A stretch of 50,168 bases of DNA from Escherichia phage vB_EcoS-DELF2: the sequence record NC_049832.1; one strand, 5' to 3'. The position numbers and the translations under genes were made by a program. The notes beneath the pieces were generated by a model, which saw only the letters and a program-made list of their open reading frames with translations, ran no database searches and had not been told where the DNA came from. Shown here piece by piece: positions 7,594-47,127 of the stretch. Position 1 is the stretch's first letter, and every line of letters starts with the position of its first letter.

Positions 7594-7644
7594 AAATACA
7601 TCCTCTTTGTTTAACATTTAGTGCTATTTTACCATATTGCAGGC

Positions 7645-9439: not shown

Positions 9440-9458
9440 TTTTAGCAATTCGTGCTAT
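9440..9458 (-). promoter_or_regulatory. palindrome motif copy (plus-strand text TTTTAGCAATTCGTGCTAT) with extended -10 TGaTATAGT 19 nt downstream
   Basis: Read directly; upstream gene stop codon TAG embedded in motif. Confidence 0.55.
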
Positions 9459-10734: not shown

Positions 10735-10753
10735 TTTTAGCAATTCGTGCTAT
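10735..10753 (-). promoter_or_regulatory. palindrome motif copy with TGaTAGAAT -10, then CAACCAATCAGAGGA leader
   Basis: Read directly; 19-nt spacing to -10. Confidence 0.55.
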
Positions 10754-13923: not shown

Positions 13924-13942
13924 TTTTAACAAAAAGTGCTAT
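13924..13942 (-). promoter_or_regulatory. palindrome motif copy with TATAGT -10 and conserved leader TAACCCCATCGACAACGAA
   Basis: Read directly. Confidence 0.55.
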
Positions 13943-14943: not shown

Positions 14944-14962
14944 TTTTAACAATTCGTGCTAT
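14944..14962 (-). promoter_or_regulatory. palindrome motif copy with TGcTATAGT -10
   Basis: Read directly. Confidence 0.55.
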
Positions 14963-15682: not shown

Positions 15683-15701
15683 TTTTAACAAAAAGTGCTA
15701 T
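15683..15701 (-). promoter_or_regulatory. palindrome motif copy with TGgTATAGT -10
   Basis: Read directly. Confidence 0.55.
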
Positions 15702-17434: not shown

Positions 17435-17935
17435 GTGTATGGCAAGCCTGATTTCATTATGGCATTTCCTCCATGCACTGACCTGGCTGTTAGTGGCGCT
17501 GCTCACTTAGCAAGAAAGCGTGAGCGAGATCCGTTATTCCAGGAGAAGGCTGTTGCCACCGCCAGGATTGCCGCGAATATTGGCGACGCCCTGGGAGTGA
17601 CTTACATCATTGAGAATCCTGTGAGCGTCCTGTCATCTGCCTGGCGAAAACCGAATCACTCATTCAACCCCTGGGAGTATGGCGGCTATCTTCCTGAGAA
17701 TGACGCACACACCTGGTTCCCTATGTATATTGCGCCGCGCGATGCTTATCAGAAGAAAACTTGTCTTTGGACCTCGGACGACTTTGTCATGCCGGAGAGA
17801 AAACCTGTAAACCTGCCTGACGGGTACTCTGCGCAACACAGCAAGCTTGGCGGCAAGTCGGCAAAGACGAAGCTGATACGATCCCTGTCGCCGCGTGGAT
17901 TTTTCAAAGCGATCGCAAATAGCACTTTTTGTTAA
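17435..17935 (+). CDS. C5-cytosine DNA methyltransferase-like, C-terminal part (FPPC motif IV, ENP motif VI)
   Basis: Same frame as 17231..17416; catalytic Cys motif PPCTD; no target-recognition domain obvious. Confidence 0.45.
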   Translation: MYGKPDFIMAFPPCTDLAVSGAAHLARKRERDPLFQEKAVATARIAANIGDALGVTYIIENPVSVLSSAWRKPNHSFNPWEYGGYLPENDAHTWFPMYIAPRDAYQKKTCLWTSDDFVMPERKPVNLPDGYSAQHSKLGGKSAKTKLIRSLSPRGFFKAIANSTFC

Positions 17936-17937
17936 AA
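17919..17937 (+). promoter_or_regulatory. palindrome motif copy (ATAGCACTTTTTGTTAAAA) with TGgCATAAT -10 19 nt downstream
   Basis: Motif encodes the last residues NSTFC-stop of the methyltransferase ORF. Confidence 0.55.
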
Positions 17938-20293: not shown

Positions 20294-20311
20294 ATAGCAC
20301 GATTTGTTAAT
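20294..20311 (+). promoter_or_regulatory. palindrome motif copy with TGaTAAAGT -10 and ACCAATCAGGAG leader
   Basis: Read directly. Confidence 0.5.
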
Positions 20312-20373
20312 ATTGCCGTAAGGTCATTTGATAAAGTGGCCTTATTCAAGATAACCAATCAGGAGCTAACGCC

Positions 20374-27432: not shown

Positions 27433-27451
27433 TTTTAACAAAAAGTGCTAT
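27433..27451 (-). promoter_or_regulatory. palindrome motif copy with TGgCATTAT -10
   Basis: Read directly upstream of Dam gene. Confidence 0.55.
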
Positions 27452-29940: not shown

Positions 29941-29960
29941 TTTTTAGCAAAAAGTGCTAT
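29941..29960 (-). promoter_or_regulatory. palindrome motif copy upstream of helicase; overlaps RBS region of divergent plus gene
   Basis: TATTAT -10 about 18 nt downstream on minus strand. Confidence 0.45.
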
Positions 29961-29972
29961 AGGAGAATCAAG

Positions 29973-30425
29973 ATGAGTATTCAACGTATCGCAGAATCAA
30001 CTGGTGAAATCGATAAACGTCACATCAATGGTAACAACGGAACACGGCGCGGTAAAGATAAAAAGCCTCGACAGCGTTGCGGGTTCTATATTCATAAAGA
30101 AGAAACACGCGCCGGACTGCGAGCGCGACTTGATGCTCTTATCGAATATTACGGCGGCCCTGCGGCCTGCGCAAAGGCTCTAAAAGTTAGCAATCAGACG
30201 GTGCAAGGCTGGAAAGATCGAAATATGATTTCATGGCAAGGCGCTGAAGCTGCGCATCGCGCTTACCGCCGACAGGGGTGTAAAGGATTTCGTGCCGCAT
30301 GGTTGCGATTCGACCTGAAGTTTGACGGTAACGGCAAGTGCCTTGAGAAGCGATGCAAGAACAAGAAATTTATGCGCGTCGTGAAGAAGGAAGATATCGG
30401 AACTACCAATAGCATTTTTAGTTAA
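29973..30425 (+). CDS. putative DNA-binding protein (Cro/YdaS-like HTH)
   Basis: HTH-like segment GGPAACAKALKVSNQTVQGWKD; basic; last residues encoded by a motif copy. Confidence 0.4.
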   Translation: MSIQRIAESTGEIDKRHINGNNGTRRGKDKKPRQRCGFYIHKEETRAGLRARLDALIEYYGGPAACAKALKVSNQTVQGWKDRNMISWQGAEAAHRAYRRQGCKGFRAAWLRFDLKFDGNGKCLEKRCKNKKFMRVVKKEDIGTTNSIFS

Positions 30426-30486: not shown

Positions 30487-31422
30487 GTGAACGAAGAATT
30501 TATGATGTTTCAGAAAGAGGACGTTTTGCCGTACATGAAGGGGTTATGGCGCGAGGCTTTCCAATCAATCTGCGGATTGCCGAATGATGTTTTTAATAAG
30601 AAGCACCAACCTTGCCCTAACTGCGGAGGTAAAGACCGCTTTCGCTGGACTGATAACCTGAACACTCCGGGCGACGGAGGTGCGATCTGCAACTCATGCG
30701 GTAACGACTCCGGGATCGGGTGGCTAATGAAATTAACTGGTATGCCGTATAGCGAATGCATAAATATCCTGGGAAGATTTCTCGGAAAAGTTCCGCAGGA
30801 ATACATCGTCAAGGCAAACAAGAAAGCGCGCCGAACTCCGGTATCTGGTGTCAATGTCATGATGGCAGATCATGAATCGGTGATGAAAGTCATGGAGCGT
30901 ACAGAGAAGCGCGTAAACACACCTCTAAGCATGTTTGAATCTCTACCTACTGAATCATTCGACGTTGGCGTAAAACGTCGCGAGGATGGCGGCGAGAGCG
31001 TATTTCACACCATACCATGTCAACTTGTACACGAGGACGGTCTTGATGATGAGTTTTGTAATATTTTGATTATTGATGATGAGGGTAGGGAGTCATTTTA
31101 CGCTAAGAAATACACAAGTTGCTCGGTTGCCGTGACTGGTAAAACAGAAAAAGCGATCTACTTATGCCTTAATTGGATTGATGCTCAGCATATTGCATTT
31201 CACACAAAGCAAGAGGTATGGGCCTGCTTCACTCCTGAGAATCTGGAAATGGTTGCATACAGATATAAAGGGGATCGAGAAGTAAGGGTTGCGTGCGAAC
31301 CTTCAGACAAGGAGACTTTATACATGGCAGACGACCGACAATTAAAAATAATCATCCCAAATCCTGGAGGATACCGCTCAGGAATGCAAGCCAAGTTATT
31401 CTCAGCAAGTGACCTACTCTAA
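30487..31422 (+). CDS. putative DNA primase (zinc-binding)
   Basis: CPNCGG...CNSCGN zinc-finger pair near N-terminus; GGAG RBS before GTG 30487. Confidence 0.45.
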   Translation: MNEEFMMFQKEDVLPYMKGLWREAFQSICGLPNDVFNKKHQPCPNCGGKDRFRWTDNLNTPGDGGAICNSCGNDSGIGWLMKLTGMPYSECINILGRFLGKVPQEYIVKANKKARRTPVSGVNVMMADHESVMKVMERTEKRVNTPLSMFESLPTESFDVGVKRREDGGESVFHTIPCQLVHEDGLDDEFCNILIIDDEGRESFYAKKYTSCSVAVTGKTEKAIYLCLNWIDAQHIAFHTKQEVWACFTPENLEMVAYRYKGDREVRVACEPSDKETLYMADDRQLKIIIPNPGGYRSGMQAKLFSASDLL

Positions 31423-31444
31423 CCGCCTTCGGGCGGTTTTTTAT
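31421..31444 (+). terminator. intrinsic terminator ACCGCC-TTCG-GGCGGT plus T-run
   Basis: Immediately after primase stop. Confidence 0.7.
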
Positions 31445-31461
31445 TGTCCATTGCAAGTCTG

Positions 31462-31503
31462 ATAGCACAATGATAAAATCAGTGTTTAGCAATTCGTGCT
31501 ATT
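31462..31503. promoter_or_regulatory. inverted pair of palindrome motif copies upstream of tail fiber gene
   Basis: ATAGCACAATGATAAAAT and TTTAGCAATTCGTGCTAT face each other. Confidence 0.4.
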
Positions 31504-31522
31504 TACTTAAGGAGTTTATACT

Positions 31523-33370
31523 ATGGCTTTATATAGACGCGGCACTGCATCAATGGATGCAGACGGCACGGTTCACGGAACCGATACGAAATGGAAAGAT
31601 CAGCTTGCTCTGATTCGAGTCGGTGCAACTATCGTATTCCTGGAGCAACCAATTAAGCTGGCGGTAATCAGCGATATTGTGAGCGACACAGAGCTAAAGG
31701 CTATCTCTACGGATGGTCAGACTGCCGCTGACGGAAAGTATGTGATCCTGCTTAACGATTCACTGACTGTAAACGGATTAGCTCAAAACGTTGCTGAGAC
31801 ATTGCGTTACTACCAGAGCAAAGAAACTGAGATCGCTGCGGCTCTTGATATCATCAATCAGCTTGATATGGATAAACTTGAGCAAATACTTGCTGAGGTG
31901 AATAAGGCGAAATCTGATTCTCAAGCTGCGCAAAATCAGGCTGAATTAGCGCGTGACGCAGCCAACGCTGCACGCGATGAAACTAACTCAATCAAGAACC
32001 AGACTCAACAAATTGTTGACGGTGCTGTAGGTAGTATTAATGCAGCAAAGGATCAGGCTATTACTGATATCGGATCTAAGGAATCATCTGTCATCACTCA
32101 CATTGACACTGAAGAGGCGGCGGCCATTCAGGCAATCAATGATGCTAAAGGCGATCTATTCGGGTATGTTAATGATGCTCAGACTGCGGCGCAAACTGCA
32201 ACATCAGCAAAAAACGATGCCCAAGCAGCACGCGATGCAGCGGTTAGCGCCAAAGATGCGGCAGCGGTAAGTGCTCAGGAAGCTCAGGACGCAGCAAATA
32301 GCGTTAATGCTGACAATCTTTTAACTAAGGACGGTAATTTAGCTGGTCTTGAGGATAAATTAGAATCATGGAAAAACTTGAGGCCAGACGCCCCATTAGA
32401 GTTACTTAAAGATCCTGAAGGCAACATGGACGCAACTACTAAGGGTTGGGTTGAGAAAGGCCTAAAAGTAAACGAATGGTCTATTTATAAAAATCTAGAC
32501 TCTGAGCCGCCAAGCGGTTCCGATTCTTCAGGCGGCAGGATTGATTCAAAATTCAAGGTTGGTGAAGTTGATAAGTACAGATCCTCTTTCGAATTGCAGG
32601 GAGGTAATGAAATAGATATATGGACAAGGATAACAACAATCAATGACAGATATAAGCAGGGCGCGGCAACATGGGATTTCAAACTGGACGGAAAGTTGAT
32701 TTTTAACAAGGGTCTAACACCAAATGGAACTGGATACTCGCCAGGTAATACCTATTTGACATTAGCTAATACATGGATGAGTTCTCAGCACAGCGGTTAT
32801 ATTGGTCTAGTTGGTGGCGGCGTTGGTGTATCTAACGGAGGCTGGAGGAACTTTGTTTCTTTGGGAGCGCTTATTTTTCCAGATAGTACTCACCCGCAAG
32901 CGGTAATATCTCAGGTGTACGATTATGATATAGCTTCAGGTAATCAGCCAAACGGTGACATTATAAGGAATACATCGTTTAACGCTGAGAGCTACGACAT
33001 AACGTTTGGGAATAACTCAGGTACTGTCAACTATATATTTTCCAAGTCTCCAGTGTCAGATGAGAGACTTAAAAGCGACATAAGGGATATTGAAACAAGA
33101 TTGGCGCTTGACAATTTGATGAAAATGAAATACCGATCATTCACATACAATTATGACAAGGAGAAAACTGTAAGGAGAGGGTTCATAGCTCAACAGCTTA
33201 TGAGCATAGATAGTCAGTACGTTAGAAAGTACGGAAATATGAATGGGGAAGATTACACGTTATCACTTGATGAGAACGTTCTTTTGCTTGACGCTATAGC
33301 TGCGATACAGGAGCTTTCAAAGCAAGTATCTTCTCTAAAAGAAGAAATAAAATCACTTAAACAATCATAA
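31523..33370 (+). CDS. lateral tail fiber with C-terminal intramolecular chaperone (peptidase S74-like) domain
   Basis: Coiled-coil Ala/Gln-rich shaft; C-terminal SDERLKSDIRDIE...YRSFTYNYDKEK chaperone signature. Confidence 0.75.
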   Translation: MALYRRGTASMDADGTVHGTDTKWKDQLALIRVGATIVFLEQPIKLAVISDIVSDTELKAISTDGQTAADGKYVILLNDSLTVNGLAQNVAETLRYYQSKETEIAAALDIINQLDMDKLEQILAEVNKAKSDSQAAQNQAELARDAANAARDETNSIKNQTQQIVDGAVGSINAAKDQAITDIGSKESSVITHIDTEEAAAIQAINDAKGDLFGYVNDAQTAAQTATSAKNDAQAARDAAVSAKDAAAVSAQEAQDAANSVNADNLLTKDGNLAGLEDKLESWKNLRPDAPLELLKDPEGNMDATTKGWVEKGLKVNEWSIYKNLDSEPPSGSDSSGGRIDSKFKVGEVDKYRSSFELQGGNEIDIWTRITTINDRYKQGAATWDFKLDGKLIFNKGLTPNGTGYSPGNTYLTLANTWMSSQHSGYIGLVGGGVGVSNGGWRNFVSLGALIFPDSTHPQAVISQVYDYDIASGNQPNGDIIRNTSFNAESYDITFGNNSGTVNYIFSKSPVSDERLKSDIRDIETRLALDNLMKMKYRSFTYNYDKEKTVRRGFIAQQLMSIDSQYVRKYGNMNGEDYTLSLDENVLLLDAIAAIQELSKQVSSLKEEIKSLKQS

Positions 33371-33375
33371 AGAAA

Positions 33376-33394
33376 AGCCCCGCAATGCGGGGCT
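33376..33394. terminator. bidirectional terminator AGCCCCGC-AAT-GCGGGGCT
   Basis: Between convergent tail fiber and SSB genes. Confidence 0.7.
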
Positions 33395-33400
33395 TTCTTA

Positions 33401-33859
33401 TCAGAATGGGATATCATCGTCAAATGTTGACTGAGGGTTCGGTTGTGGTTGTTGTTGAGTTCGCTGTTGTTGCTGAGGGTTCGGTTGTGGTTGTTGTTGA
33501 GTTCGCTGTTGTTGCTGAGGCGATCGCTGTTGTTGATTGCTTTGTCCTCGTTGACTGAATACCAGCTTAGGAAAATCAGCGGCCTGCAATGAATTGTAAA
33601 CCTTTCCGTTGTGCTCACGGGATGAGATCTTCAACGTTTCGCATGATACAGATATAACTCGACCAACCTGGAACGCTTCACGATACCAGTCAGCAAGGCC
33701 AGGCTTTCCACCATCACTAAAAAAGAATGTGTAGTTGGTGTATTCTCGATCGCCATCACGAGGTTTATAGCTCTCTGCCAGTTCGATGATATAAGTATTG
33801 CCGCCGTTACGCTCCAGAATCTTAGGTTCTTTTCGGATCTCGCCAGTGATAATATGCAT
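33401..33859 (-). CDS. ssb: single-stranded DNA-binding protein
   Basis: C-terminal acidic tail DDDIPF; Gln/Pro-rich linker with tandem repeat. Confidence 0.85.
   Translation of the reverse strand: MHIITGEIRKEPKILERNGGNTYIIELAESYKPRDGDREYTNYTFFFSDGGKPGLADWYREAFQVGRVISVSCETLKISSREHNGKVYNSLQAADFPKLVFSQRGQSNQQQRSPQQQQRTQQQPQPNPQQQQRTQQQPQPNPQSTFDDDIPF
33431..33540. repeat. 42-bp tandem repeat (about 2.5 copies) inside SSB linker
   Basis: ctgagggttcggttgtggttgttgttgagttcgctgttgttg repeated; encodes QQQRTQQQPQPNPQ twice. Confidence 0.85.
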
Positions 33860-33905
33860 GTTTTTCTCTCCTAAAATTTATGTGCGACCGAAGCCGCCCT
33901 GATGA

Positions 33906-34553
33906 TTATTCGAAGTTGGTGATTGATTGAGATTGTACAGGCTTCGCGCTCGTTGCTTCAACCTGTTTTTTCTGTTCCGGTTGTGCCGGGCGAATACCGC
34001 GAGCTTTACCGATCTCAAACTTAGCCTTAAGTGCGTTGTAGTGATCCTGAATGATTGACTTGCTTGCTGTGTCCGTCTGTCGGTAAGCGTTAGCCCATAC
34101 CTCTTTCAGTGATTCGATATCTTCACACGCATCAAGTTCTTTCTTCCAGTCCTTGACAGATTTTACTGCAAGCTGAGCATCGTCATCACTCTGGCTAATC
34201 CCCAGCGCTGCGGCTAATGAGTAACGTCGAGCATAAGTCATTGCGGAACCTACACCTTGCGGATCGCGCTTTGCAATCGGCATCATCATGAAGAATTTGG
34301 CCCACTGACCGGATTTGTGAATCAGCATAGTTTCAAGGTGGAAGGTCGTTTCCGTGCTTGTATCCAGCATTGATTGCAGGATCATGATATCGTTATCGGT
34401 TAGCGCCGGGCTTACTGCCGCCATCATTGCATCAAGAGTTGCGTATGAGTTTTTCAGGTGATTGTTTTTAGCGTCCTTCTTTGCTTTAGCGAATTTGTTG
34501 CGAGCATTGAACAGCGCGGGAAGGATTTCGTTGGTTTCTGGTGATAATTGCAT
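33906..34553 (-). CDS. erf: Erf-family single-strand annealing recombinase
   Basis: ERF-like core (GSAMTYARRYSLAAALGI); CACCAATCAGGAG leader before ATG 34553. Confidence 0.75.
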   Translation of the reverse strand: MQLSPETNEILPALFNARNKFAKAKKDAKNNHLKNSYATLDAMMAAVSPALTDNDIMILQSMLDTSTETTFHLETMLIHKSGQWAKFFMMMPIAKRDPQGVGSAMTYARRYSLAAALGISQSDDDAQLAVKSVKDWKKELDACEDIESLKEVWANAYRQTDTASKSIIQDHYNALKAKFEIGKARGIRPAQPEQKKQVEATSAKPVQSQSITNFE

Positions 34554-35692: not shown

Positions 35693-36218
35693 TTCGTTTA
35701 TCTCCCTCGTTTACGATGAATCCATTATAGCCATTAACAGCGTTTAGTCAATCGAATACATGTAATTGGTGTGTAATTGCGTGTCTATATCACTCAAGTT
35801 ACAACCAGCGCCAACGGAATCAATTACTTAATCCTGTTTTTATGTGGTGTCTATTGCGTAATACTTGTAACCGCTTTTTCTTAGAAATACAAAGATATCC
35901 ATGAATAGAATCAAGATTGATTATATTTTGAACAAATATGATAGAAATTTGACGAATCAATCAAATCACCAGTTACACGATAGACAACTGTTACACAACA
36001 ATAATTATATATATAAAGCTAAAATTAAATATTATCTATCTATATATATTATATAGAGTTTTTATCACATCACCATGCGGTCGGATGGGGTGGATTTTGT
36101 AACACCTGTTCCGGTTACAAAAATAGACACCTGTTACACGAAAAAATTGTAATCGCGCTATTGCAATAAAAGTAAATGCGACATACAATGCAATCACACT
36201 AACGACGAGGACATACAA
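35693..36218. repeat. AT-rich divergent intergenic region with iteron-like repeats
   Basis: ATAGACA(A/C)CTGTTACAC x2, GTGTCTAT x2 in opposite orientation, TGTAACACCTGTT, ATATTATCTATCT. Confidence 0.5.
36160..36189 (+). promoter_or_regulatory. canonical sigma70-type promoter (TTGCAA-17-TACAAT) for lipoprotein gene
   Basis: Read directly; approximate coordinates. Confidence 0.5.
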
Positions 36219-36449
36219 ATGAAAAAGTTAATCGCCATTATTGCTGCTGCATTTATCCTGACTGGTTGCGCTCAGAATCTTAAAAATGGAGACTGCGTTA
36301 CTTACGCTTACGGATCTTGCATGATGCGATTCGTTGACGGTAAGAAGGTTCCGGCTGGCGAAATCGATATGCGATTCAAAGGTCTGTCATCCGACGACGA
36401 TCAGGGTAACTTCAGCGGAAAGGTGTCAATAAAAACTAAAGAGTGGTAA
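36219..36449 (+). CDS. small lipoprotein, putative superinfection-exclusion factor (Cor/Llp-like)
   Basis: Signal peptide with lipobox LTGC; 76 aa; next to tail fiber/receptor-binding locus. Confidence 0.6.
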   Translation: MKKLIAIIAAAFILTGCAQNLKNGDCVTYAYGSCMMRFVDGKKVPAGEIDMRFKGLSSDDDQGNFSGKVSIKTKEW

Positions 36450-36451
36450 TT

Positions 36452-37408
36452 ATGGGACAAGGAATATACATAAATCTAAATGACGGTCGTCCGGCAATGG
36501 AGATAACCTCTGGACTTCGCGCCCCGTCATGGTGCGGACCAATACAAGCGGACGGGGTTGATTCATCTGGATCGGTTTTTGATTTTGGTCTGCAAATGAG
36601 TCCAGGGTCTACTGCTTTTTGCCTTCCATCTCAGGCTATCTACATAGACGATATGGATTACATCCCGGAGGTGTATTATTTGACCAGTTTTCAGAAGGTC
36701 AATGATTCAACCGGACGAATAACGGTAGGTAATTTTAACGGGCACGGTGGAAGGAGGATGAGATTTTATGGCAACTGTTACGAAATCCTCCCCGCTCAGG
36801 CTGGAAATCAGGGGATACTTGTTAACGATTCAACGAACTTCGCAGCGATACCGAATAACGCCAGATTGATGAGCGCTGCATTTGTTGGGGGGATTCAGGT
36901 TAACGGTCAGGCTCAGTTGCCAGTACAGGGCGTTCCTTTCGGTATGTGGGATAATCCAAACGTAACACTTGAATCTGACGGCAATACAATATGGTGCAGG
37001 GATGCAAACTATAACGGGATTGATGACGTTGGCGCGAGCGTATACGTTCAACTCGTAATATTTAATAACACCCCACCACCTCCTGGGCCTGGAATAACTA
37101 TGAGTAACCCTGCTGGCCAGATCGTTTTCTCAAGCGTTAGACGCCCCTTCGTTCTTGGCGGGACTATGGCGATAAATGATGGTTGGCAGTGGTGCGGTGG
37201 ATTTTTCCCAATACTGAGAACAGGTACGATATGCAGAGTTACAGGTGGATATAATAACATTCGATACAAGGGCGTTTGCATGAGCGGCGGTAACGTGAGA
37301 AGCGCACCAGGAACAAGGGTAGGTAACTATTCTACTCAGAGCGGCGCTCAATTTCCCTTCAATATAAACATTTCAATGCCAATTCCTTTCACTCCAAACA
37401 TGTATTAA
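36452..37408 (+). CDS. putative receptor-binding protein
   Basis: Gly/Asn-rich beta-type protein encoded between the lipoprotein and the J-like gene. Confidence 0.4.
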   Translation: MGQGIYINLNDGRPAMEITSGLRAPSWCGPIQADGVDSSGSVFDFGLQMSPGSTAFCLPSQAIYIDDMDYIPEVYYLTSFQKVNDSTGRITVGNFNGHGGRRMRFYGNCYEILPAQAGNQGILVNDSTNFAAIPNNARLMSAAFVGGIQVNGQAQLPVQGVPFGMWDNPNVTLESDGNTIWCRDANYNGIDDVGASVYVQLVIFNNTPPPPGPGITMSNPAGQIVFSSVRRPFVLGGTMAINDGWQWCGGFFPILRTGTICRVTGGYNNIRYKGVCMSGGNVRSAPGTRVGNYSTQSGAQFPFNINISMPIPFTPNMY

Positions 37409-40884: not shown

Positions 40885-40932
40885 GATGTTTACCTTTTTG
40901 TGCTATTTATCGGTGGACTCATTATACAGGCG

Positions 40933-43112: not shown

Positions 43113-43133
43113 AAAAAAACCCGCGCAAGGCGG
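43113..43133 (-). terminator. hairpin CCCGC-GCAAG-GCGGG with A/T runs both sides
   Basis: Between M-like and L-like genes. Confidence 0.5.
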
Positions 43134-47053: not shown

Positions 47054-47127
47054 GATATTTCTCCTGATTGGTTAATGGCACTTTTTGTTAAAAGAGAATA
47101 GTGCAAACTTGATACGATGATTTTACA

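Follow-up and report, generated by a model that had tools for sequence, protein, structure and literature searches.

A lateral tail fibre gene with an exchanged distal half and a reversed 21-nt repeat in its leader in the T1-like Escherichia phage vB_EcoS-DELF2

Introduction

Why should a tail fibre gene stand between the primase and SSB genes of Escherichia phage vB_EcoS-DELF2, and is it, as a whole or in part, an exchangeable host-range cassette? The question is raised by a long plus-strand reading frame in the window, the whole 50,168-nt stretch of DNA analysed here (sequence record NC_049832.1), where this frame is preceded by an inverted pair of short motifs. The region is that of a T1-like phage (Drexlerviridae, Tunavirus), with ~95% DNA identity to JMPW1, phi2013 and IME167 at the fibre locus (megablast). 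The lateral tail fibre locus of Drexlerviridae lies between syntenic recombination and primase/helicase genes, and its 5′ end alone is conserved (Maffei et al. 2021, PMC8594841, S1C Fig). Such a locus has been described for 13 BASEL Drexlerviridae (PMC8594841).

Identity and genomic position of the fibre gene

With high confidence, the reading frame is the lateral (side) tail fibre gene of a T1-like siphovirus, a kind of gene that has already been described.

31523..33370, plus strand: lateral tail fibre gene; 615 aa, 66.8 kDa precursor
31508-31513, plus strand: Shine–Dalgarno sequence AAGGAG, 9 nt 5′ of the ATG and conserved across the aligned loci

The initial annotation had called the product a tail fibre. 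This identity is borne out by matches to PHROG tail-fibre families (best E=1.4e-82) and by an N-terminus of the Depo32 type. The identification is correct and already known: JMPW1, phi2013 and IME167 carry a 'tail fiber protein' between primase and SSB, and they match at ~95% across the whole region. Membership of the virion is expected by analogy with two homologues, Sfin-1 CDS61 and the 78 kDa protein of TLS. CDS61 (pfam13884, adjoining primase) was detected by LC-MS/MS in purified virions (PMC6714547); the same virion proteome also contained helicase and primase, and hence is not clean evidence for CDS61 (PMC6714547). The TLS 78 kDa structural protein was equated by its authors with Gp55 and related by them to the T5 L-shaped fibre (PMC11447400).

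The neighbours are as originally proposed. Primase lies on the 5′ side (30487..31422, plus strand; PHROG 510, E=2.5e-110), and SSB is convergent on the 3′ side (33401..33859, minus strand; PHROG 44). A primase / fibre / SSB–Erf–exonuclease locus is likewise found with the T1-like lateral fibres of JMPW1, phi2013, Sfin-1 (CDS61), T1 and TLS (Gp55). The record of phage Chapo has a matching layout of the fibre locus, with a promoter annotated at the corresponding place. The supposed remoteness from the tail module was overstated, since a cluster of Cor-like lipoprotein, DUF6453 and gpJ genes begins at 36219, only 2.85 kb off, with three recombination genes between. The description of the gene as 'inserted' in the replication block is also unsupported, because its position is syntenic across the family and is the published ancestral Drexlerviridae locus (PMC8594841).

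Domain organization of the fibre protein

The product is composed of parts with separate relatives, listed here from the N-terminus.

31523..32053, plus strand: N-terminal virion-attachment domain and start of the shaft (aa 1-177), delimited by phmmer matches to Depo32 N-termini
31820..32332, plus strand: Ala-rich shaft (aa 100-270); 24% Ala, 8.8% Gln
32315..32350, plus strand: conserved junction motif NLLTKDGNLAGL, aa 265-276, at or shortly after which relatives cease to match in DNA
32378..33055, plus strand: variable distal receptor-binding region (aa 286-511), unmatched at the DNA level in 13 of 14 Tunavirus loci
33056..33367, plus strand: Peptidase_S74 intramolecular chaperone, from Pfam, profile and alignment; Ser512 at 33056-33058, Lys517

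The N-terminus is homologous to that of Depo32, a Drexlerviridae depolymerase of solved structure (chains 7lzj, 7vyv and 7vz3; phmmer, E ~1e-41 to 3e-42). The anchor of this Klebsiella phage tailspike corresponds to aa 1-177, and the first ~100 aa are highly similar. Depo32, with 907 aa in total, continues into a depolymerase body, whereas a Pfam search found no enzymatic domain in the fibre. The Ala/Gln-rich composition noticed earlier holds for the shaft as delimited above, which is presumed to be a trimeric coiled coil. Part of the shaft and junction (aa 217-317) matches the L-shaped tail fibre of DT57C (8hqz_d, E=9e-8).

The C-terminus had been read as a self-cleaving chaperone, and the profile search agrees. 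Pfam PF13884 (Peptidase_S74) matches aa 512-567 at 45.6 bits, above the cutoff of 22 bits (E=8.5e-12), and the match covers positions 1-57 of a profile of 58. The signature SDERLKSDIRDIE lies within it at aa 512-524, and the Ser–Lys dyad S512-D-E-R-L-K517 (SDxxxK) stands at the N-terminal edge of the domain. Both dyad residues are invariant in an alignment of eight sequences with 24-41% identity. A profile of eight C-termini matches solved chaperones: DT57C LtfA (8hqz_d, 4.1e-29), S16 gp37 (6f45_A, 2.7e-15), MYRF (7dc3_A, 3.5e-14), 8jov_1 (2.3e-9) and GA-1 (3gud_A, 2.7e-6). The SDxxxK dyad, the C-terminal position and the helical tail are shared with the S74 domains of K1F endosialidase, the GA-1 neck appendage, S16 gp37 and MYRF. 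The passengers differ: elsewhere an endosialidase or a triple beta-helix has been shown by structure, and here the passenger is a fibre tip known from sequence. A homologue search with the distal half gave 8 proteins, an alignment shallow for modelling, and AlphaFold2, run on aa 285-615 as a monomer with a 9-sequence alignment, gave an unusable model (mean pLDDT 39.3).

The chaperone resembles that of the T5-like L-shaped fibres (T5 pb1 and DT57C LtfA; structure 8hqz, and the entry 4UW8 that PMC11447400 cites), for which a role in binding O-antigen as primary receptor is presumed. Those fibres are ~1076-1400 aa long against 615 here, and differ in N-terminal attachment domain and genomic context.

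From the families to which the parts belong, the working of the fibre can be outlined. (i) Three chains would assemble into the fibre. (ii) The N-terminal ~100-180 residues would dock it on the tail, with the Ala-rich coiled shaft next. (iii) The distal region, aa 286-511, would form the receptor-binding tip. (iv) The S74 domain (aa 512-615) would act as an intramolecular chaperone and template trimer folding. (v) Autocleavage after Ser512 by the Ser512–Lys517 dyad would yield a mature fibre of 54.7 kDa, and by analogy the predicted released peptide would comprise aa 513-615 (12.1 kDa). (vi) As in T5-like fibres, the tip would reversibly bind a surface glycan, e.g. O-antigen, ahead of the gpJ/DUF6453 tip engaging the terminal receptor. 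Binding of O-antigen by Drexlerviridae lateral fibres is considered likely, but 'has never been directly demonstrated' (Maffei et al. 2021, PMC8594841). In Cronobacter phages, single residues in a Drexlerviridae fibre that bears an auto-processing chaperone domain distinguish one host specificity from another (PMC12090712).

The transcription unit and the reversed repeat

Signals for transcription bracket the gene on both sides, and the inverted motif pair lies among those at the 5′ end.

31421..31438, plus strand: rho-independent terminator after primase; AACCGCC-TTCG-GGCGGTT, then TTTTTATT; -11.8 kcal/mol, z -3.2
31451..31479, plus strand: predicted sigma-70 promoter with extended -10; -35 TTGCAA at 31451-31456, 17-nt spacer, TG at 31471-31472, -10 TAAAAT at 31474-31479
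31462..31468, plus strand: left arm of the pair, a bare ATAGCAC heptamer within the promoter spacer, without the TTGnTAAAA half of the repeat
31484..31502, minus strand: complete copy of the 21-nt direct repeat, ATAGCACGAATTGCTAAAC, between the -10 and the Shine–Dalgarno sequence and against the direction of the fibre gene
33373..33397, both strands: bidirectional terminator hairpin common to the convergent fibre (plus) and SSB (minus) genes; right boundary of the variable segment

The fibre gene would form a self-contained unit, with the primase terminator 5′, a sigma-70 promoter of its own and the bidirectional terminator 3′. The bracketing terminators inferred in the initial annotation are indeed present as the hairpins at 31421-31438 and 33373-33397, the latter folding at -19.7 kcal/mol on one strand and -19.2 kcal/mol on the other. 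Independent regulation, in the sense of an own transcription unit, likewise finds support: the arrangement terminator / TTGCAA-17-TGaTAAAAT promoter / gene / terminator is invariant in 14 Tunavirus loci. Both promoter hexamers and the TG are unchanged in these loci, and the spacer varies. The stem of the primase terminator persists in every related locus; in the more distant locus L015 (tblastn identity of 60% for the N-terminal part of the protein; ~70% for DNA) a stem change is compensated. The promoter is predicted from its match to the consensus, and would place the start of the fibre transcript at ~31486. An Rfam scan of 31000-34000 (E<=1) returned sub-threshold, terminator-driven matches alone, and a literature search on transcriptomes and transcription starts in Drexlerviridae gave nothing relevant.

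The motif pair consists of ATAGCAC at 31462-31468 and GTGCTAT at 31496-31502, with 27 nt between the arms. Bare 7-nt inverted repeats number three in 180 nt, which is about chance expectation. Across the window, ATAGCAC occurs 24 times against 5.05 expected, and the paired ATAGCAC/GTGCTAT pattern was seen in 0 of 100 shuffles. One half of the proposed pair stands: the right arm is part of a conserved, reversed copy of a 21-nt repeat. The left heptamer is not conserved and is probably fortuitous, because it is intact in just 7 of 15 aligned loci. It was rejected as a second copy, since the 3′ half of the repeat is missing as well. A full-text literature search for 'ATAGCAC' returned unrelated primer sequences alone.

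The 21-nt repeat has the consensus aaATAGCACnnnTTGnTAAAA, published for TLS, T1 and Rtp; there it runs in the direction of transcription, ~76 nt 5′ of start codons (PMC11447400). The window contains 27 matches at <=3 mismatches. The minus-strand copy at 31484-31502 matches the published repeat with 1 mismatch (likewise 1 mismatch to the consensus ATAGCACNNNTTGNTAAAA), but it fails the usual placement, being antiparallel to the gene, 21-39 nt before the ATG and downstream of a separate sigma-70 promoter. Its palindromic core is centred at 31494, ~+9 of the predicted transcript. The conserved reversed repeat downstream of the fibre promoter is the single minor feature of this locus left unexplained. 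A part for the core in a rightward promoter was rejected: the nearest -10-like hexamer, TATACT (31517-31522), stands 7 nt nearer than required and runs into the region of the start codon.

We know of no described mechanism of temporal control in T1-like phages. It is conceivable, though on balance unlikely, that the reversed repeat is an operator-like or decoy site, a regulatory layer atop the fibre unit described above and no replacement for it. At some 19 early/middle promoters a repeat-recognizing factor would act ~42 bp 5′ of the transcription start. Bound at ~+1 to +20 in the fibre leader, it would block the otherwise host-competent fibre promoter until repeat-dependent transcription falls, and so delay a structural gene in the replication block. 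In its general form, put forward just as tentatively, this one factor, or else an altered RNA polymerase, would switch on ~19 early/middle promoters from ~-42 and, when bound in a leader, hold late or structural units (fibre, terS, gpJ) off early.

Conservation is consistent with a site of this kind: none of the 14 Tunavirus loci alters the core, and L015 has kept it. The intergenic region is, however, 93% conserved overall in Tunavirus, and an unchanged core inside this one genus therefore says little. In L015 the change in the TTGnTAAA half falls on the free 'n' alone, yet it breaks the possible RNA hairpin; selection at the DNA level is therefore indicated. At the other repeat promoters a -10-like hexamer stands at a fixed 19 nt past the repeat. 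The hexamer at this distance from the fibre copy is TATCAG, and at the corresponding place the sequence ends in G in 14 of 14 Tunavirus loci and in T in 0 of 15 aligned loci. The fibre copy also forms no comparable hairpin, folding at -3.8 kcal/mol where the other repeat promoters average -12.3. In two other late units, terS (7609-7627) and gpJ (40888-40906), repeat-like elements likewise follow the -10 and precede the start codon, but they are imperfect copies (2-3 mismatches) that point forward. A Cro/YdaS-like HTH protein of 150 aa (29973..30425) that could be a candidate factor is encoded two genes upstream. 'Stoperator' or enhancer roles were raised by the TLS authors, who leave the function of the repeat as an open question (PMC11447400). 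TLS itself has no listed repeat before its fibre gene gp55 (PMC11447400), so that the element is not needed family-wide.

The TATCAG hexamer bears on a second, distinctly improbable role, that of a working leftward promoter, antisense to the primase 3′ end or colliding with the fibre promoter, with the inverted heptamer as its -10 region. The spacing is that of functional-looking repeat promoters, 19 nt and then TGcTATCAG, and the left heptamer ATAGCAC is complementary to that position. The hexamer nevertheless varies freely, from TATCAG here to TATGGG, CACCTG, TACCCG and CATGAG in relatives, and the T end, the most conserved -10 position, is lacking in 15 of 15 loci. The hairpin of the other repeat promoters is absent as well, and the role was rejected.

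Very improbable, and also rejected, is a third role in which the palindromic core UAGCA-AUUCG-UGCUA acts as a 5′-terminal RNA hairpin that stabilizes the fibre mRNA or modulates its translation. It would span ~+2 to +16 of the predicted transcript, and the minimum free energy structure does contain the 5-bp stem, but the fold is no better than that of shuffled sequences (z -0.06; 92 of 200 equal or better), and L015 has a change that disrupts the stem without compensation (TACCA...TGCTA) and keeps the DNA repeat consensus.

Exchange of the distal half

T1-like lateral fibres have the N-terminal ~285 aa in common, as they do the promoter and terminators. Over aa 1-~286 identity is 80-96% in Tunavirus relatives and 41-70% in more distant loci. 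The distal half of most relatives differs from the one here. Past aa ~286 their fibre proteins are unrelated or 30-55% identical (per-protein comparison), and in a T1-like relative and in Chapo the C-terminal module is of another, non-S74 kind. The JMPW1 group has the whole fibre gene in common, at ~95-96%.

The comparison of this locus across related phages for mosaic replacement, suggested at the outset, located the breakpoints. In 13 loci DNA homology ends on the left at 32313-32376, codons ~264-285, and on the right it resumes at 33359-33373, at the stop codon and terminator. The junction motif is also found in the proteins of a T1-like relative, Chapo, the loci L002, L007 and L015, and Dhillonvirus. 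Recombination at two places, this conserved NLLTKDGNLxGL junction on the left and the stop codon/terminator on the right, replaces the distal 1 kb alone. GC content in the distal region is lower, 0.375-0.425 against ~0.46. In amino acids the distal region is 75% identical to the fibre of podovirus phiEco32; the value for Dhillonvirus is 58%, and that for a T5-like phage 43%. The nearest relatives of the distal module are phiEco32 and EC22.5-2. The phiEco32 match (74.9% over aa 343-609) takes in receptor-binding region and chaperone, whereas its N-terminal attachment part and virion architecture differ, an illustration of distal-module exchange across families. The idea of an exchangeable host-range cassette accordingly holds for the distal 3′ half (~32377-33372), which is swapped, and not for the whole promoter-to-terminator unit.

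That the entire gene is a recent moron-like foreign cassette in the replication module, and not a core gene at its native position, is hardly credible: the lower GC of the distal half, its occurrence in unrelated phage families and the gene's own promoter and terminators would suit an acquisition, but in 13 Tunavirus loci the gene, its 5′ 860 nt, the promoter and the flanks on either side are in synteny, at 85-93% identity, and recent insertion of the whole gene was rejected on this ground. The synteny extends to the more distant L015 and L016, the locus is the one described for 13 BASEL Drexlerviridae, and the 3′ half alone is foreign.

Implications

The finding largely confirms existing knowledge, and predicts a processed fibre of 54.7 kDa. 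It locates the host-range determinant for swapping or engineering at ~32377-33372, with the NLLTKDGNLAGL junction and the stop codon/terminator as its limits. The reversed repeat in the fibre leader, together with the fixed spacing from repeat to -10, provides a simple testable handle on the question of the 21-nt repeat. If true, the operator or decoy reading would say what the 21-nt repeat does, a question listed as open by the TLS authors.

The fiber locus and its neighbourhood

The gene belongs to the lateral tail fibers of the Drexlerviridae. The elements of its transcription unit and flanks are as follows.

30487..31422, primase gene, left of the fiber gene (PHROG 510, E=2.5e-110)
31421-31438, hairpin and T-run ending the primase gene
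31451-31479, plus strand, predicted promoter TTGCAA-17 nt-TAAAAT with TG extension
31462-31468 / 31496-31502, inverted repeat ATAGCAC / GTGCTAT, 7 nt
9 nt upstream of the fiber ORF, plus strand, Shine-Dalgarno AAGGAG
31523..33370, plus strand, lateral tail fiber ORF, 615 aa
33373-33397, GC-rich bidirectional terminator hairpin shared by the fiber and SSB genes
33401..33859, minus strand, SSB gene, right of the fiber gene and convergent with it

Beyond SSB lie the genes for an Erf-like annealing protein and then exonuclease VIII. All features named in the initial annotation are present in the sequence, and it placed the gene correctly between primase and SSB. It also regarded it as inserted in the replication block and far from the tail module; the first is not supported, and the second overstates the distance. 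Genes of the tail tip (Cor-like lipoprotein, DUF6453, gpJ) begin only 2.85 kb away. Across 13 Tunavirus loci (IMG/VR), identity is 85-93% in both flanks and in the initial ~860 nt of the gene, and the upstream primase is kept in the more distant loci L015 and L016. The record of phage Chapo has exactly the same layout: primase, terminator, promoter, tail fibers, terminator, next gene. Thirteen BASEL Drexlerviridae carry the same fiber locus with syntenic recombination and primase/helicase flanks, conservation of the fiber gene itself being restricted to the far 5' end (Maffei et al., PMC8594841). The gene sits at its native position and is not an insertion.

The proposal of an independently regulated unit bracketed by terminators agrees with the two flanking hairpins and the gene's own predicted promoter. 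Because this promoter is invariant in 14 Tunavirus loci, its spacer varying, and stands between terminators, the unit resembles the 'transcriptons' of the T1 late region (terminator, promoter, genes, terminator; PMC11447400). Extended -10-like elements also directly follow terminators at other late units (terS, gpJ and the minor tail gene at 43128).

Several neighbouring features were recorded. The SSB gene contains a 42-nt tandem repeat (33425-33520, 2.3 copies, 98% matches) that codes for a duplicated Gln/Pro-rich stretch directly before the acidic C-terminal tip; this stretch is ~40 nt shorter in most Tunavirus relatives. Two proteins encoded beside gpJ probably make up the terminal-receptor/superinfection-exclusion locus described for small siphoviruses: a lipoprotein (36219..36449, plus strand; Pfam Phage_lipoprotein, weak match to Cor of superinfection exclusion) and one with DUF6453 (36443..37408, plus strand). 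The name 'u-spanin' for the lipoprotein homologue in the Chapo record looks like a mis-annotation. The AT-rich intergenic region at ~35700-36200 (GC 0.31-0.36 versus ~0.46), between the divergent exonuclease and lipoprotein genes, holds several promoter-like sites.

Domain organization

Identification as a lateral tail fiber is upheld by PHROG tail-fiber families (E down to 1.4e-82), a Depo32-type N-terminus and an S74 C-terminus. Residues 1-177 share homology with the N-terminal part of Depo32, a tailspike of solved structure from a Klebsiella phage of the Drexlerviridae (7lzj, 7vyv, 7vz3; E ~1e-41 to 3e-42). They form the predicted virion-attachment module common to the family. An Ala-rich shaft is present as described (24% Ala in aa 100-270), and aa 217-317 weakly match the L-shaped fiber of DT57C.

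The suspected self-cleaving chaperone was recovered by profile search. The signature SDERLK, starting at Ser512, falls in a hit to Pfam Peptidase_S74 that is full-length and scores 45.6 bits, above the cutoff of 22. A profile of the last ~110-170 aa of the protein and seven relatives matches solved chaperone domains of DT57C LtfA (4.1e-29) and S16 gp37 (2.7e-15), and further MYRF (3.5e-14) and the GA-1 neck appendage (2.7e-6). Ser512 and Lys517, the predicted dyad, are invariant in this alignment (24-41% identity). By every sequence criterion tested, the C-terminus appears to be a bona fide S74 chaperone domain. In this family, which includes K1F endosialidase and T5 pb1, the domain is established to serve as a template for folding of the trimer before it cuts itself off behind the Ser. 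By analogy, cleavage after Ser512 would release a 12.1 kDa peptide from a mature fiber of 54.7 kDa. For aa 285-615, AlphaFold2 gave no usable model (pLDDT 39).

Exchange of the distal module

The 2-kb fiber region aligns over its full length with JMPW1, phi2013 and IME167, all of them Escherichia phages (~95%); in ~60 T1-like phages of Escherichia and Shigella (Drexlerviridae, Tunavirus) only the first 977 bases match. On this basis, the window represents a Tunavirus or a genome closely akin to that genus. DNA homology with relatives stops at 32313-32376 (codons ~264-285), a breakpoint that falls together with a conserved junction motif, NLLTKDGNLAGL (aa 265-276), and restarts around the stop codon and terminator (33359-33373). 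These breakpoints confine the exchanged unit to the gene's distal 1 kb. The anticipated mosaic replacement of a host-range cassette is thus found across related phages, but not with the promoter-to-terminator extent proposed.

Distal modules differ among relatives, most having their own S74 domain. In Chapo and in L012, a 48,836-bp contig, the S74 end is replaced by an unrelated conserved domain (…NGFIKRASPIV…GEYLI.GC…LWVDY…HRTH…), so not all Tunavirus lateral fibers use an intramolecular chaperone. The distal half of the 615-aa fiber is 96% identical to that in a few coliphage records, 74.9% to the fiber of podovirus phiEco32, 58% to a Dhillonvirus fiber and 43% to that of a T5-like phage, and its GC content is below that of its surroundings. 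This pattern is classic cross-family mosaicism of fiber tips.

The 21-nt repeat

The heptamer ATAGCAC occurs 24 times in the window versus 5.05 expected. ATAGCAC-N3-TTGnTAAAA, of which it forms the 5' half, has 27 matches at <=3 mismatches and is identified by its sequence as the 21-nt direct repeat of TLS, T1 and Rtp; the TLS paper assigned it no function and explicitly listed this as an open question (PMC11447400). Copies of several kinds occur.

9440-9458, 10735-10753, 13924-13942, 14944-14962, 15683-15701, 27433-27451, 29942-29960, minus strand, repeat with -10-like hexamer (examples)
17919-17937, 20294-20312, plus strand, repeat with -10-like hexamer (examples)
7609-7627, 40888-40906, minus strand, degenerate forward copies, 2-3 mismatches
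903-921, 47075-47093, plus strand, copies opposed to surrounding minus-strand structural genes

At ~19 sites a -10-like hexamer (TATAGT, CATAGT or TATAAT, often with TG extension) follows the repeat at a fixed 19 nt (rarely 18-22); none of these hexamers in the window has a -35 at 17 nt. Because this spacing puts the palindromic core TAGCA-N5-TGYTA at ~-42, the sites resemble a class of promoters specific to the phage and serving early/middle genes. In the 41 nt after each of these 19 copies, a hairpin usually encloses the hexamer (14962-, GGGGTA..TATAGT..TACCCC; 19777+, GGGAGT..ACTCCC). Mean MFE is -12.3 kcal/mol versus -5.8 for random 41-mers, with z < -2 in 13/19 and pairs spanning the -10 in 15/19. 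Stem sequences vary between copies, which looks like covariation, and a conserved CATCGAAACGA-like leader follows.

In two late units, terminase small subunit and gpJ, the degenerate copies sit after a terminator-proximal extended -10-like element and before the start codon, a position comparable to that of the reversed copy in the fiber leader. One opposed copy adjoins a terminator that separates the gene of the Ig-domain structural protein from that of the major head protein, the arrangement of TLS DR7/T35 (PMC11447400); the other, near the major tail protein gene, is followed by a TG-extended TACGAT and 19 nt later by a hairpin.

Both arms of the inverted motif pair first noted at the fiber gene are present, but the full repeat is the minus-strand copy 31484-31502 only. 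Its core does not vary among 14 Tunavirus loci, and the more distant L015 keeps it as well. The plus-strand heptamer 31462-31468, in the promoter spacer, is intact in 7/15 loci only and is regarded as fortuitous. From the predicted start at ~31486, the palindromic core is centred at ~+9, an operator-like position; the reversed repeat might conceivably be an operator or decoy delaying the fiber gene, a doubtful reading since TLS has no listed repeat before its fiber gene (PMC11447400). A leftward promoter is unlikely: the hexamer at 19 nt varies and ends in T in 0/15 loci, and the hairpin of other repeat sites is absent. An RNA hairpin was rejected, the fold being no better than shuffles. In L015 the sole change in the TTGnTAAA half falls at the free 'n' position and breaks the stem uncompensated; because the consensus is kept and the hairpin broken, a DNA-level element is favoured.

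A candidate for binding the palindromic repeat is encoded just upstream of primase: a 150-aa protein (29973..30425, plus strand) that matches PHROG 2856 'transcriptional regulator', with sub-threshold P22_Cro and YdaS HTH matches.

Relation to known fibers

A homologue of the fiber, CDS61 of Sfin-1, was found in virions (PMC6714547), and a 78 kDa structural protein of TLS was equated by its authors with Gp55 (PMC11447400). Experiments on Cronobacter phages have tied a Drexlerviridae fiber to host specificity (PMC12090712). The fiber identification and the idea of exchangeable host range are right, but are already published knowledge; the locus has one unexplained detail, the reversed repeat conserved in the leader.
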